A stretch of 64,000 nt of DNA, from contig JAUXAN010000004.1 of the NCBI GenBank assembly GCA_030619885.1, forward strand, positions 12,575 to 76,574, given 5' to 3'. A program made the position numbers and the translations under genes. Below are positions 2,895 to 7,448 of this stretch, in pieces (the first letter of the stretch is position 1; each line of letters begins with the position of its first letter). Source of the stretch: a bacterium (GTDB taxonomy: Bacteria; Hydrothermota; DG-26; JAUXAN01). The notes beneath the pieces were generated by a model. The model worked only from the letters and a program-made list of their open reading frames with translations, made no database searches and was not told the DNA's origin.

Positions 2895-3471
2895 TGTAAT
2901 GAATAATCATTTCCACTCATTAAGAGGACTTTGAATATTCAAAAGAATATGATTCAAACGATTTTCTGGCAAATAGACATAAATATGCGAGGAATGTATA
3001 ACTTGGATTTTTGAGAGATTTAACTGGAATAATCCTCCAAGAGGTGTAATCCAAGAAATACAAAAGAAGTTTTTAGAAAAAAGAATATAGAATTACGTCG
3101 GCTAACGCCATTCAGAATTATTTTCTACTGAAAAAACTCCGACAGTCTTTATTGGAATGGAATATGCTCACTCTCACTTTAGCGTAGACCATCATGTAGA
3201 TATAGTGGGTGGAGATGTTCATTTTTTTCCAGTCGTCAAATTGACTATCTTGGGTGGTATTTCAAATTAAATATTCATTGCCCTTTCTCGAGAAATTTTG
3301 GTTATGGTTACACCCTGACTCTCGGTTACAAGACCACCAAACTTATCAACTCCTCCTCAAGTTATGAAGTGGAGGAAGGTGTTGAACTTTGGAAAATTAC
3401 ATAAAATGCTTGGGGAATTCTATTTTGGGGTTTCGTTTTTCAGTTAAATAAATCGAAGGGAGGTATGAAAA

Positions 3472-3606
3472 ATGAAAACTTTTTATAAATATATTCAATT
3501 ATTTACTATAGTTCCGTTGATTATCCTTGCTGAAGGAAGAGCGAATGGGCTTTTGCAATGCTCTAACCATCTCCGAGAGGATATATCCACTTTGCTGAAA
3601 TGTTGA
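3472..3606 (+). pseudogene. 44-aa ORF with strong RBS and signal-peptide-like start; likely 5' remnant of an exported-protein gene
   Basis: gggaggtatgaaaaATG then MKTFYKYIQLFTIVPLIILAEG...; translated by hand, below the ORF-track cutoff. Confidence 0.3.
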
Positions 3607-3691
3607 GTGAAGAATGAAGCTTTGAACCTAATTTATGTTTACTAACTCTATTGACAATCTTTAGTCTATTTATATCTTAAAAATTGAGCGA

Positions 3692-5971
3692 ATGAAGAGT
3701 TTTTTATCCACAATTAGAAGAAGAGTTGTAGTCTTCGACAGTCCGGTCCATACCCAATACAAAAGATATGGATTTCAGACTCTTCCCGATTCTCTCAACC
3801 TAACTCACCCCTCTTTTGTAAAGAAGATTCATACCGAATATTTAAAAGCGGGATGCGATGTGATTACTACAAATACCTTCAACAGTAACAGGGTCAAATT
3901 ATCAGAATTCAAACTGCAAGGGAGATTTGAAAAAATCAATAGAGAGGGCGTAAGACTTGCTAAAGAGGCTGCTAAGACTAAATTTGTTGCTGCATCTGTT
4001 GGTCCCACTGGAAAAGTGATTACCGATTCAGCAAAGAATGTCTACAAAGCCTTTGCTGAACAGGTGAAGATTTTTCAATCCGAAGATGTGGATGCGATCA
4101 TAATAGAAGCGATGGAGGATATAGTTGAGTTAAAAACCGCCATACTCGCATCAAAAGAGAACTCGACACTTCCAATAGTAGCCACGTTCTATTTTGAAAA
4201 AGCAGCAACTACCCCGGAAGTTGTGGCAGTAGTCACAGAGTCTATGGGAGTAGACGGAGTGGGTGTGGATTTTGAAGGGGATATAAATACTGCAAAAAGA
4301 ATACTTTCAAAGCTAATCCAATTTACTACCCTTCCCATACTCATTCGATTCGATTGGGAGAGGCTCTCTGTATCTGATTTGATAGACACTGGTGCAAATA
4401 TGATTGGGGGATGGTATGGCACCACCCCTGAACAGATCAGGAGCATCAAACCGAATATCCCTACAGGGAGAATAAAAAAGCGCACCCTCCCTTCTTGTAC
4501 ATATGTGAGTTCAAGAAAAAAGGTCGTCAAGATTGGTGATTTCCCAGTAGTCATCGGTGAGTCTATCAATCCGAGTGGCAAGAAAAGATTGCAGAAAGCG
4601 ATAAAAGATGGCGATTTCTCTCACATCGTTCAGCTTGCTGTTCGTGAGGCAAAAACAGGTGCAGATATACTCGATGTAAATTTGAGCGTTCCATCTACTG
4701 ATGAAACAGCAATTATGCCGAAAGTGGTTTCACTCCTGTCCAATTCAGTAGACCTTCCGCTATCCATCGATACGACCTCTATTAGAGTACTCGAGCAGAC
4801 GCTTCCTTTATATCCCGGTAAACTTCTGGTAAATTCCACCACCGGTGAAGAGAAAAAACTGAAAAGAATCCTTCCACTGATAAAAAGGTATGGTTCAGCC
4901 TTGATAGGATTAACCATAGATGAAGAAGGCATTCCGAAGAATGCAAAAAAGAGGGTTCAGATCGCAAAAAAAATCATAGAATGGTGTGCTGAGTATGGCA
5001 TCTCCAAATCGGATATAATAATCGACCCACTAACTTTAAGTATATCAACAGATACAGAAGCGGTTATGCAGACACTCGATGCCTTAAAAGAGATAAAAGA
5101 CAAATTATCTGTAGCCACAGTTCTTGGAATAAGCAATGTCTCCTATGGCTTACCGAATAGGAAGCTTCTAAACTCTATCCTCTTATCTATGGCAATTTCC
5201 CGTGGACTGGATGTTGCGTTTATGGACCCATTTGATAAAGCCATGTGGAACACCCTCTACTCCTCTGCCTTGCTCGCAAACAAAGACCCACACGTAAAGA
5301 GATTCCTCACATACTTTCAGCTCCTCTCTGTAAAAGAAACACACCACAGTCTGTACGATATAATTATCGAAGGGGATAAGGGGAAAGTACCATCTTTAGT
5401 AGAAGCATCACTCAAAGAAATGGAGCCCTTCTCTGTGGTGGATAAGGTGATTACACCCGCCTTAAAAGAGGTTGGCGAAAGATTCAACCGCGGTGAAGTT
5501 TTTATACCCCAGTTAATGCTATCGGCAGAGTCTGCAAAGATTGCTACAAACATAATCAGGGAAGAAATGGGTATGCACAGAGATAGTCTTTTTAATAAAG
5601 GAAAGATCGTATTTGCTACCGTGAGGGGAGACCTGCATGACATCGGGAAGAATATAGTGATTGCTGTGTTAGAAAATCACGGGTATGAGGTCATCGACCT
5701 TGGAAAAGATATCCCCTCGAAAAAAATCATCGAAGAAGCAATCTCAAGGAGAGCAGACATAATTGGACTTTCTGCTCTGATGACCACCACAATGTTGGAG
5801 ATGAAAAACCTGATCGAGGAGTTGCATAGGAGGAAAATCAATCTAAAGGTGCTGATTGGGGGCGCATGTGTTACCAGAAAATATGCAGACTCCATCGGTG
5901 CCAATGGCTACGCTAATGATGCGGTTGAGGCTGTAAAGATTGTTGAAAAACTGTTGGGGAGGAATGTATGA
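3692..5971 (+). CDS. metH: Cobalamin-dependent methionine synthase-like protein (degenerate Hcy-binding domain + pterin-binding MeTr domain + B12 cap/B12-binding domain; no reactivation domain)
   Basis: ASVGPTG, IGESINPSGKK, ISNVSYGLP, GDLHDIGKNIV (DxHxxG), SALMTTTM; the Zn-ligand Cys positions read GVDF and GGWYGTTP. Confidence 0.8.
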   Translation: MKSFLSTIRRRVVVFDSPVHTQYKRYGFQTLPDSLNLTHPSFVKKIHTEYLKAGCDVITTNTFNSNRVKLSEFKLQGRFEKINREGVRLAKEAAKTKFVAASVGPTGKVITDSAKNVYKAFAEQVKIFQSEDVDAIIIEAMEDIVELKTAILASKENSTLPIVATFYFEKAATTPEVVAVVTESMGVDGVGVDFEGDINTAKRILSKLIQFTTLPILIRFDWERLSVSDLIDTGANMIGGWYGTTPEQIRSIKPNIPTGRIKKRTLPSCTYVSSRKKVVKIGDFPVVIGESINPSGKKRLQKAIKDGDFSHIVQLAVREAKTGADILDVNLSVPSTDETAIMPKVVSLLSNSVDLPLSIDTTSIRVLEQTLPLYPGKLLVNSTTGEEKKLKRILPLIKRYGSALIGLTIDEEGIPKNAKKRVQIAKKIIEWCAEYGISKSDIIIDPLTLSISTDTEAVMQTLDALKEIKDKLSVATVLGISNVSYGLPNRKLLNSILLSMAISRGLDVAFMDPFDKAMWNTLYSSALLANKDPHVKRFLTYFQLLSVKETHHSLYDIIIEGDKGKVPSLVEASLKEMEPFSVVDKVITPALKEVGERFNRGEVFIPQLMLSAESAKIATNIIREEMGMHRDSLFNKGKIVFATVRGDLHDIGKNIVIAVLENHGYEVIDLGKDIPSKKIIEEAISRRADIIGLSALMTTTMLEMKNLIEELHRRKINLKVLIGGACVTRKYADSIGANGYANDAVEAVKIVEKLLGRNV

Positions 5972-6600
5972 TTGTAACAATAGAGAAAGATTTTGCAGAA
6001 GTCTTGAAAGTAACAAAAGAAGAAGATAACCTCTTTATATTTGGATGTGCAGGATGTGCTACACTATGTCAGACAGGGGGAGAAAAACAGGTGAAAGAAC
6101 TCGGAGTAAAATTGGAAAGCGAAGGTAAGGAGATCATCGGTTATTCAGTCTTGGATGTACCCTGTGATGAAAGAATAGTGCGAAAGGAGTTCAGAAATAA
6201 TAGTTCTATTCGGAATGCAGACTCTATTATTATAATGGCTTGCGGAGCAGGTATTCAATCTGTCCAGAAATTTTCTCCTATTCCAATCCATCCTGTGCTC
6301 GATTCTCTGTTTTTAGGCACCATAGAGAGGATAGGCAAATTTTATAACTACTGCTCCATCTGCGGTAACTGTGTGCTTGAAGATACGCAAAATCTCTGTC
6401 CTATTACCAGATGTGCTAAAGGTCTTTTAAACGGCCCATGCGGGGGTATGAATGAGGGAAAGTGTGAAGTAAATAGTGAATTAGATTGCGTATGGGTACT
6501 CATATACGAAGCGATGGAGAAAAAAGGTAATGTGAACAATCTAAAACTTTTCAGAGAACCGAGAAATTGGGTACAATCTTTCGTATTTAAATCTGAATGA
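5968..6600 (+). CDS. metV: Methylenetetrahydrofolate reductase Fe-S/Zn partner subunit (MetV, MTHFR C-terminal-like)
   Basis: GCAGCATLCQTGG, MACGAGIQ, CSICGNC...CPITRCAKGLLNGPCGG motifs; overlaps metH stop and metF start. Confidence 0.85.
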   Translation: MIVTIEKDFAEVLKVTKEEDNLFIFGCAGCATLCQTGGEKQVKELGVKLESEGKEIIGYSVLDVPCDERIVRKEFRNNSSIRNADSIIIMACGAGIQSVQKFSPIPIHPVLDSLFLGTIERIGKFYNYCSICGNCVLEDTQNLCPITRCAKGLLNGPCGGMNEGKCEVNSELDCVWVLIYEAMEKKGNVNNLKLFREPRNWVQSFVFKSE

Positions 6601-7448
6601 AATTTTGTGATATATTAAAGAGAAAAGAATTCGTTGTAACCTGCGAATTCTGTCCCCCTAAGGGAACGGATCTCACAGAAATGTTACAAAAAACAGAACT
6701 CGTTCGACCTTATGTAGACGCAATAAATGTAACTGACAATCAGAGAGCTCGACTTTACCCCTCATCCCTGGCAGTATCCCGCATCTTAAAAGAAAGAGGA
6801 TTTGAAGTTATCTGTCATCTAACCTGTCGTGATAGGAACAGGCTCTCCTTACAGTCAGACCTGCTCGGTGTTCATATTTTAGGGATAGAAAATATACTAT
6901 TTTTAAGTGGGGATCACCCCCTTTTAGGAGACCATCCCGAGTCTAAGCCTGTATATGACCTCGATGTCTCCCAATTGCTCCGCACAGCAAGCCATCTCAA
7001 GGAAGGGAAGACCCTGTCGGGAAAGAAATTGCAAAATAAGATCAGTCTTTGCACTGGTGCTGTGGTGAATCCAGAGGCAGAACCTCAGGAACTCCAGATT
7101 TTGATGATGGAAAAGAAGATAGTACTGGGTGCAGAGTTTTTTCAGACACAGCCGGTCTTTGATGTAGACAAGTATAGGAAATTCTATGATAGAGTGAAGG
7201 GGTTTGGTGCAAGGGTGTTGCCGAGCGTCCTGGTGATAAAATCGGCGAAATTTGCGAAAAATATGAGCAAGGTTCCAGGCATAAAAATCCCTGAAAAGTA
7301 TATAAAAAGATTGGAAAGAGCCCAAAACCCTTTAAAGGAAGGGCTAAAAATTGCAGATGAGATAATATTGGCTTTAAAAGAATTCAGCGGTGGAATTCAC
7401 ATAATGGCTCCTGGGATTGAGGAGAATATTCCACAACTTAAAATCTGA
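6597..7448 (+). CDS. metF: 5,10-methylenetetrahydrofolate reductase
   Basis: EFCPPKG, AINVTDNQ, HLTCRDRNRLSLQSDLLG, LSGDHP, FFQTQPVFD. Confidence 0.9.
   Translation: MKFCDILKRKEFVVTCEFCPPKGTDLTEMLQKTELVRPYVDAINVTDNQRARLYPSSLAVSRILKERGFEVICHLTCRDRNRLSLQSDLLGVHILGIENILFLSGDHPLLGDHPESKPVYDLDVSQLLRTASHLKEGKTLSGKKLQNKISLCTGAVVNPEAEPQELQILMMEKKIVLGAEFFQTQPVFDVDKYRKFYDRVKGFGARVLPSVLVIKSAKFAKNMSKVPGIKIPEKYIKRLERAQNPLKEGLKIADEIILALKEFSGGIHIMAPGIEENIPQLKI

Follow-up and report, generated by a model that had tools for sequence, protein, structure and literature searches.

Methionine synthase MetH is a textbook modular enzyme that shuttles one cofactor between its active sites by large domain motions. 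What becomes of such an enzyme when one of these active sites is lost? The question is raised by a gene in a 64,000-nucleotide stretch of contig JAUXAN010000004.1 (positions 12,575 to 76,574 of the forward strand; hereafter the window) from a Hydrothermota bacterium (assembly GCA_030619885.1). The product of this gene, P0001, is derived from MetH. Its N-terminal homocysteine (Hcy) barrel has lost the zinc-binding cysteines and the substrate loops, yet the barrel is under purifying selection, and the sole intact Hcy methyltransferase of the genome is a separate protein. We propose, with somewhat more confidence than doubt, that methionine synthase is functionally split in this organism: the pseudo-enzyme barrel would be kept as a scaffold, and the Hcy step would be carried out by the separate protein of 314 amino acids. 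The gene and its parts are listed below in window coordinates.

3692-5971, plus strand: MetH-derived gene encoding P0001, 759 amino acids (open reading frame (ORF), translation, Pfam and NCBIfam domains, AlphaFold 2 (AF2) model).
3692-4546, plus strand: degenerate Hcy barrel and linker, residues 1-285, still predicted to form a (βα)8 barrel (conservation, tree, AF2).
3734-3754, plus strand: FDSPVHT, residues 15-21, at the site of the FDGAMGT loop after strand β1 (alignments).
4262-4282, plus strand: GVDFEGD, residues 191-197, at the site of G-x-N-C-S-x-G; F194 occupies the first zinc cysteine position (alignments).
4346-4357, plus strand: RFDW, residues 219-222, at the site of QPNAG, with a 16-residue deletion after it (alignment).
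4406-4423, plus strand: GGWYGT, residues 239-244, at the site of GGCCGT; W241 and Y242 occupy the second and third zinc cysteine positions (alignments).
4547-5326, plus strand: intact pterin-binding barrel (methyltetrahydrofolate (methyl-THF):corrinoid methyltransferase, MeTr), residues 286-545 (PF00809, PRK07535).
5327-5968, plus strand: intact cap and B12-binding domain, residues 546-759, with GDLHDIGKN at 5627-5653 (PF02607, PF02310).

Residue-level alignment to MetH(1-566) of Thermotoga maritima places P0001 F194 (GVDFE) opposite Cys207 (GINCS), and W241 and Y242 (GGWYGT) opposite Cys272 and Cys273 (GGCCGT). Cys207, Cys272 and Cys273 were reportedly identified as the zinc ligands of the T. 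maritima enzyme by Evans and colleagues in 2004. In E. coli MetH, a single change of cysteine to alanine or serine at position 247, 310 or 311 abolishes zinc binding and Hcy methylation. In an alignment with 18 homologues, the DGxxGT loop has changed from FDGAMGT to FDSPVHT, the PNAG loop from QPNAGLP to RFDW followed by the deletion, and TNTFGGN to TNTFNSN. The initial annotation of the locus had read the zinc-cysteine motifs as GVDF and GGWYGT, had listed FDSPVHT and had reported the PNAGLP segment as missing, and the two alignments agree with it on each count. The cysteine-triad zinc site typical of MetH is absent from P0001; a barrel fold is predicted nonetheless. These losses support the view that the N-terminal barrel has no canonical means of binding zinc or homocysteine, and from its sequence P0001 is predicted to be incapable of the Hcy half-reaction in cis.

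The remainder of the protein is preserved. Pfam matches cover residues 31-253 (S-methyl_trans, 140 bits, partial with respect to the profile), 290-509 (Pterin_bind, PF00809, 97 bits), 552-621 (B12-binding_2, PF02607) and 637-748 (B12-binding, PF02310), and the scan of the 759-residue product found no activation domain. Against the NCBIfam MetH equivalog TIGR02082, P0001 scores 417.7 bits, under the cut-off of 1010.85, and it passes the MeTr/AcsE-type model PRK07535 (265.8 bits, cut-off 259). All of the invariant folate-barrel columns are kept (D328, N330, D360, N381, D445, N482 and R490). The B12 motifs GDLHDIGKN (residues 646-654), SALMTTT and GG are intact, with S694-x-L696 and G723-G724 present; in a 38-sequence alignment D647, H649, G652, S694, L696 and G724 are invariant and G723 nearly so, and P0001 retains every one of them. 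Two MetH features, the pterin barrel with its folate-binding residues and the cap with the B12 domain, are thus found in P0001, supporting the assignment of the protein outside its first barrel as an intact methyl-THF:corrinoid methyltransferase with a B12 module. The earlier description of P0001 as such a methyltransferase with a dead or repurposed barrel, an intact MeTr domain and an intact GDLHDIGKN motif therefore stands. Its statement that the protein is "probably not a methionine synthase" is right for the polypeptide alone, in which the Hcy site is lost, but not for the overall role of the gene. P0001 most likely still takes part in methionine synthesis because the genome, described below, has no MetE, one stand-alone Hcy methyltransferase (HcyMT) beside its sole activation gene, and enzymes that produce homocysteine.

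The loss is real and rare. Within the 120 best N-terminal homologues in a set of 5.8 billion proteins, only P0001 and its twin P0002, which is 99% identical, lack G-x-N-C and GGCCG. Of the top 150 cluster representatives drawn from 1.84 billion clusters, only that of the cluster of P0001 itself and an unrelated protein, P0143, are without the triad. Five contigs, from five metagenome samples, carry the P0002 gene as identical DNA in an unchanged gene neighbourhood, and the 90% cluster of P0001 holds seven distinct protein variants, all with FDSPVHT, GVDFEGD, RFDW and GGWYGT. Assembly or sequencing error as the source of the lost motifs was rejected on the basis of these five contigs and seven variants. 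The search for orthologues with the same substitutions, suggested in the initial annotation, has thus returned seven variants, and the substitutions are not unique to one assembly. A pattern scan of genome contigs with P0001 found no relative; close relatives came only from the protein databases. The dead-barrel MetH occurs only in a single species-level lineage, with P0143 as a further, independent case.

Selection on the barrel was estimated by comparing the window strain with a second strain, from which it differs by 35 nucleotides. Codons 1-285 carry 11 synonymous and four non-synonymous differences (F>L, Q>E, L>I and V>I), a ratio of non-synonymous to synonymous polymorphism (pN/pS) of 0.11, compared with 0.21 for the whole gene. 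Under neutrality approximately 11.6 of the 15 barrel differences would be non-synonymous versus the four observed (binomial p = 4.7e-5); purifying selection on the barrel, one of the checks first suggested for this gene, is therefore seen. Across the seven variants, amino acid polymorphism affects 8 of 285 sites in the barrel, 12 of 260 in the folate barrel and 4 of 214 in the cap and B12 domain. In each assembly all 759 codons can be read through without a frameshift.

Relative rates were assessed with 35 outgroup MetH proteins by comparing P0001 with P0003, its nearest intact relative (intact motifs, 42-46% identity in the barrel). Mean identity of the Hcy barrel to the outgroups is 32.7% for P0001 versus 42.2% for P0003, and each of the 35 outgroups is nearer to P0003 than to P0001. 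The corresponding values are 41.1% and 40.9% for the folate barrel, and 42.4% and 40.2% for the cap and B12 domain. Conserved columns follow the same pattern: P0001 has lost 21 of 54 in the Hcy barrel (P0003, 6 of 54), 9 of 55 in the folate barrel (P0003, 8 of 55; 46 kept versus 47) and 4 of 48 in the cap and B12 domain, the same number as P0003. A maximum-likelihood tree places the P0001 barrel beside the intact P0003 and P0122 as its sisters (support 100/99) and gives it a branch of 0.92, versus 0.23 and 0.33 for these two. Sequence comparison thus shows an acceleration that is limited to the Hcy barrel of P0001, the other modules having evolved at the rate of the sister protein.

The AF2 model of P0001, built from a 38-sequence alignment, has a predicted local distance difference test (pLDDT) score of 88.2 and a predicted template modelling score (pTM) of 0.81. 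It contains eight β-strands alternating with helices over residues 13-255, where block-mean pLDDT values range from 72 to 97 and are mostly at least 80, and the two-barrel half superimposes on T. maritima MetH(1-566) with TM-scores of 0.82-0.85 and root-mean-square deviations of 3.2-3.5 Å. The model therefore predicts that the degenerate region still folds as a (βα)8 barrel and packs against the folate barrel. Together with the barrel pN/pS of 0.11, the predicted fold argues against free decay, and the data support a gene that is alive.

Which protein could then methylate homocysteine? The assembly of the window strain comprises 2.46 Mb in 86 contigs and is 97% complete. Four of its genes outside the window bear on the question.

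C57:27589-28533, minus strand: HcyMT, 314 amino acids (full PF02574 profile, 231 bits).
C57:26863-27498 (the same as L001:718-1353), minus strand: MetH-type activation protein, 211 amino acids (PF02965-like).
C40:25601-26254: free MtgC-like corrinoid protein, 217 amino acids, among unrelated genes.
C53:9754-11214: non-pyrrolysine MttB-family methyltransferase, 486 amino acids (297 bits), among unrelated genes.

PF02574 matches two proteins in the genome, P0001 and HcyMT, and HcyMT is the only intact member of the family, with its zinc and Hcy motifs preserved (FDGGMGT, TNC, QPNAG and GGCCGT). The further Hcy methyltransferase that the initial annotation had proposed to look for therefore exists. 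As in split MetH systems, this PF02574 protein stands alone, has an intact zinc site and is not encoded together with the corrinoid module. The activation gene lies 90 bases downstream of the HcyMT gene, and the pair recurs on an independent contig. This is the sole activation-domain gene of the genome, so that the S-adenosylmethionine (AdoMet) reactivation module characteristic of MetH is present as a separate protein of 211 amino acids and not as a fused domain. The activation protein is 36% identical (110 bits) to the type encoded upstream of intact short metH genes and 30% identical (75 bits) to the type found in the MttB gene cluster described below, and its tail, C-x2-C-x4-C, is typical of the latter. 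These features give it the appearance of a mosaic or intermediate, with an overall sequence nearer to the tail-less MetH-linked type. It also carries PGYSSW, with serine after the conserved tyrosine, where the cluster versions have cysteine (PGYCGW).

No MetE or core-MetE (PF01717) was found in the 97%-complete genome, nor was an acetyl-CoA synthase or a RamA/RACo-type activase. P0001 has the only MeTr-type pterin barrel of the genome, the other pterin match resembling FolP. A MetY-like enzyme and S-adenosylhomocysteinase are present, and homocysteine must accordingly be produced and remethylated. A Wood-Ljungdahl role for the MeTr module of P0001 was rejected for lack of acetyl-CoA synthase. 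It was also considered that HcyMT might be a corrinoid-independent enzyme of the MmuM/BHMT type; this is less likely because its counterparts form an operon with corrinoid and activation proteins in eight of eight relatives and because the activation gene directly follows the HcyMT gene in the window genome.

P0001 is itself the first gene of an overlapping set that continues with the following two genes.

5968-6600, plus strand: metV (DUF5981), the zinc-ribbon subunit of the MetVF-type methylenetetrahydrofolate reductase (MTHFR) (PF12225, 108.8 bits).
6597-7448, plus strand: metF, the MTHFR catalytic subunit (PF02219, 130 bits).

ATGA overlaps join the P0001 stop to the metV start (5968 versus 5971) and the metV stop to the metF start (6597 versus 6600). 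This coupling had been taken as a hint of a different methyl partner. However, the intact P0003 (L048) is encoded in an overlapping metH-metV-metF operon, and at the locus of the intact P0004 (L069) an activation gene, metH, metV and metF follow one another in that order. The coupling to metVF is ancestral and, since intact relatives share it, offers no clue to a new partner. In Moorella, the MetVF-type MTHFR associates with Hdr/MvhD proteins. A different arrangement is seen in the relatives G004, G010, G031 and G001 (L070, L071, L074 and L075), in which MetH lies directly downstream of a YitJ-type fusion of approximately 600-616 amino acids that joins an Hcy barrel with an intact CC motif to MTHFR; in the window genome, metV is instead a gene of its own and metF has no barrel. 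Some relative genomes with the YitJ-type fusion carry three intact Hcy barrels. On its other side, P0001 is preceded by approximately 800 bp (window 2895-3691) without a long ORF or an Rfam match, and a search of this gap for a remnant activation gene found nothing. Two population variants, P0271 and P0274, have been called with a 19-residue N-terminal extension (MFTNSIDNIHSIYILKIER); an in-frame TAG interrupts this extension in the window strain, and the shared ATG at 3692 is therefore the likely start.

HcyMT, the corrinoid protein and the MttB homologue have counterparts elsewhere in the phylum. Eight genomes (L055-L062) from at least four families carry a tight operon for an MttB homologue, an activation protein of approximately 245 amino acids, a corrinoid protein of approximately 212 and an HcyMT of approximately 300. 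A cluster of this kind has been described in Ca. Electryoneota and "diverse bacteria", with the hypothesis that it makes methionine from an unidentified methyl donor (Williams et al., 2022; PMC9324843). The window genome has all four gene types, at 48-50% (MttB), 37-43% (corrinoid protein), 39-41% (HcyMT) and 26-35% (activation protein) identity to the cluster genes. Its HcyMT groups with the cluster HcyMTs (support 93/97), and its HcyMT, corrinoid protein and MttB are the best matches to the cluster genes of the eight relatives. It differs from the described cluster in that the genes are not in a single operon but scattered over three contigs (MttB on C53, corrinoid protein on C40, HcyMT and activation protein on C57), and in that the activation gene follows the HcyMT gene and resembles the MetH-linked type. 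In the relatives an intact MetH coexists with the cluster, usually beside the YitJ-type Hcy and MTHFR fusion, and Williams et al. found multi-domain MetH intact in genomes with the cluster, whereas the MetH of the window genome has lost its Hcy site. One relative (G035) has a second corrinoid protein and a 361-residue ORF just upstream of mttB. Sub-threshold PYLIS_3 matches at L049:1863-1962 (minus strand) and L059:2537-2640 (plus strand) lie inside non-pyrrolysine mttB homologues without an in-frame stop and most likely reflect mttB coding homology and not a functional element.

From the loss of catalytic residues, the intact folate and B12 modules, the selection on the barrel, its predicted fold and the gene inventory, we propose the following course of events. 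P0001 would have descended from a short (Thermotoga/Clostridia-type) cobalamin-dependent methionine synthase, its Hcy barrel having become a pseudo-enzyme domain. A second Hcy-methylating module may have relaxed selection on the active site in cis and allowed its loss. Methyl-THF would be made by MetVF, encoded next door, and the folate barrel of P0001 would use it to methylate its own cob(I)alamin domain. We infer that HcyMT, a zinc enzyme, would then act in trans, passing the methyl group from methyl-cobalamin to homocysteine, and that methyl groups flow in this direction. The activation protein, co-transcribed with HcyMT, would restore the oxidised cobalamin, cob(II)alamin. The dead barrel would remain under purifying selection as a packing or structural partner of the folate barrel. 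P0001, with folate and B12, and the C57 operon, with Hcy methylation and reactivation, together amount to the four MetH modules, and it is in this sense that the enzyme would be functionally split. A trans Hcy module has precedents: a three-part split MetH is genetically proven in Phaeobacter (PMC5764234), and an MtgBCDE system has been described in Ruegeria (PMC12478193).

Two further proteins bear on the scaffold role proposed for the Hcy barrel. P0143 (L063:4273-6042; ENA ERZ24842246, on a contig labelled Geopsychrobacteraceae) has 589 amino acids, with a degenerate Hcy barrel and an intact pterin barrel; its motifs read LDGKMAS, GINGDLG and TYAE, GGCCGT is reduced to G-GGA, and no B12 domain is present in the protein. 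Its dead barrel fits a scaffold role. A 187-residue ORF without a Pfam match lies downstream of the P0143 gene. The MetH of relative G010 (L071:6227-8599, 790 amino acids) reads GGCYGT, with one zinc cysteine replaced and NC and PNAG intact, in a genome that also has the MttB, activation, corrinoid protein and HcyMT operon and the YitJ-type fusion. This GGCYGT may mark the beginning of the same relaxation, unless it is a sequencing error. Taken together, P0143 and G010 suggest that relaxation of this kind has happened more than once and that even a dead barrel is usually retained.

Several points weigh against a functionally split enzyme. The evidence for docking of HcyMT on the B12 domain of P0001 consists of the gene inventory and the operon context. 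MttB, the free corrinoid protein, HcyMT and the activation protein might by themselves suffice as a methionine synthase, in which case P0001 would have a different task. The estimate of purifying selection on the barrel comes from only 15 substitutions between two close strains, and the AF2 alignment was made of intact homologues, which favours a barrel fold as the outcome. No riboswitch (SAM, B12 or other) was found upstream of P0001, the HcyMT and activation gene pair, the corrinoid protein gene or mttB. The genome is a draft of 86 contigs, and a further Hcy methyltransferase could therefore be missing from it.

The most substantial rival reverses the flow. P0001 would be a fused corrinoid protein and methyl-corrinoid:THF methyltransferase, in the role of MtgC plus MtgA/MtgD, with the orphan MttB-family enzyme as its partner; methyl groups from quaternary or methylated amines would pass to the B12 domain of P0001, then to THF, and be oxidised by MetVF. 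With the Hcy site gone, methyl groups would no longer leak into methionine, which would be supplied by MttB, the free corrinoid protein and HcyMT. Such a scheme would find an MttB-family gene and a free MtgC-like corrinoid protein in this genome, and it would suit a pterin module that scores above the cut-off of PRK07535; in Ruegeria, a bidirectional pterin methyltransferase gene is followed by a metF paralogue for methyl oxidation (PMC12478193). However, the MttB operon of each of the eight relatives examined encodes HcyMT, rather than a pterin methyltransferase, as its acceptor module, the metH-metV-metF arrangement derives from intact methionine synthases, the genome has neither a RamA-type activase nor an acetyl-CoA synthase, and its MttB gene lies among unrelated genes. 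We consider reverse flow rather unlikely as the main role of P0001; it and a split synthase are not exclusive. In a further reading, decay of the thiol site would have made P0001 an open methyl-exchange hub, its B12 domain, still tied to the folate barrel and to a dead scaffold barrel, being visited in trans by both HcyMT and the MttB-family amine methyltransferase, with methyl groups flowing among amine, THF and homocysteine. We entertain this hub tentatively, as a possibility with the balance against it.

The remaining readings concern the barrel itself. Redundancy of MetH, once MttB, corrinoid protein and HcyMT make methionine, could mean that the gene is simply being lost, barrel first. 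A loss limited to one species-level lineage, the redundant route in the genome and the missing cysteine in the G010 MetH would all fit, but plain decay is improbable for a gene with an uninterrupted 759-codon frame in every assembly, pN/pS values of 0.11 in the barrel and 0.21 overall, MeTr and B12 domains as conserved as in the intact sister, and a retained translational coupling to metVF. Alternatively, H20, D193, E195, D197, W241 and Y242 might form another metal or substrate site for a new methyl acceptor or donor; the replacements are fixed in seven variants of a barrel under purifying selection, and several are potential ligands (His, Asp and Glu) on its C-terminal face. A scaffold role explains the purifying selection equally, though, and the PNAG substrate loop has been deleted rather than remodelled. 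The residues in question are absent from other lineages, so that a new site has no family-level conservation, and P0143, which also has a dead barrel, carries replacements quite unlike them; repurposing of the barrel is, in our view, quite improbable. That P0001 is a self-contained methionine synthase, activating homocysteine without the three-cysteine zinc site, finds favour only in the retained overall MetH architecture. It is very improbable given that none of the three ligands survives, nor the DGxxGT or the PNAG loop, and given that single cysteine changes already abolish activity in E. coli MetH.

Several known systems can be set beside P0001. T. maritima MetH (TM0268; PDB: 1Q7M and 3BOF) has the same order of Hcy barrel, folate barrel, cap and B12 domain with no fused activation domain, the activation domain being a separate protein of approximately 200 amino acids in both (TM0269 there), and related intact genes stand in act-metH-metV-metF operons. 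P0001 differs by lacking the zinc triad, the DGxxGT loop and the PNAG loop, and the activation gene of the window genome has moved beside the stand-alone Hcy methyltransferase. Two further systems, one from Phaeobacter inhibens (split MetH; Price et al., 2018; PMC5764234) and one from Ruegeria pomeroyi (MtgBCDE; Mausz et al., 2025; PMC12478193), have in common with the window genome a separate Hcy module with the corrinoid module encoded elsewhere, a pterin methyltransferase gene followed by metF, and an MttB-family enzyme. In contrast to those systems, P0001 keeps the pterin and corrinoid modules fused with a vestigial Hcy barrel attached, reactivation is assigned to a MetH-type AdoMet domain and not to RamA/DUF1638, and the split would have come about through decay of one domain rather than through separate genes for each module. 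The active parts of P0001 also correspond to the chemistry of AcsE/MeTr (Moorella) and of the MtgA/MtvA-type MT2 enzymes of O-demethylases, with a corrinoid domain built in, and its pterin barrel matches the structures 2YCK, 2E7F and 4O0Q at TM-scores of approximately 0.9. Unlike these enzymes, P0001 belongs by phylogeny to MetH (intact MetH proteins are its sisters, 100/99) and has kept a dead Hcy barrel, and, unlike the setting of AcsE/MeTr, the window genome has no acetyl-CoA synthase.

The components, the logic of a split MetH and the companion cluster (as the 2022 hypothesis) are already known; the MetH barrel that is dead but selected is what the present locus adds, and the literature searched yielded no account of a MetH whose Hcy barrel is catalytically dead yet selected. 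Automatic annotation would label P0001 a "methionine synthase", and pathway tools would count it as a normal MetH, which is wrong for the polypeptide alone. P0001 is a natural MetH with a dead yet selected Hcy module in a genome whose sole live Hcy module is a separate protein. It offers a naturally occurring test of whether the folate half-reaction and the docking of the B12 domain depend structurally on the Hcy barrel. It also illustrates a route from a fused enzyme to a split system, by complementary loss after a paralogous module appears, and ties canonical MetH to the widespread MttB, corrinoid and HcyMT cluster, in a minimal set of five small genes. If P0001 does act as an open methyl-exchange hub, it would represent an independent reinvention, in an anaerobe lineage, of the logic of the Ruegeria MtgBCDE system with the ancestral fused enzyme still recognisable, and the Hcy barrel of MetH would have a structural role separable from catalysis.

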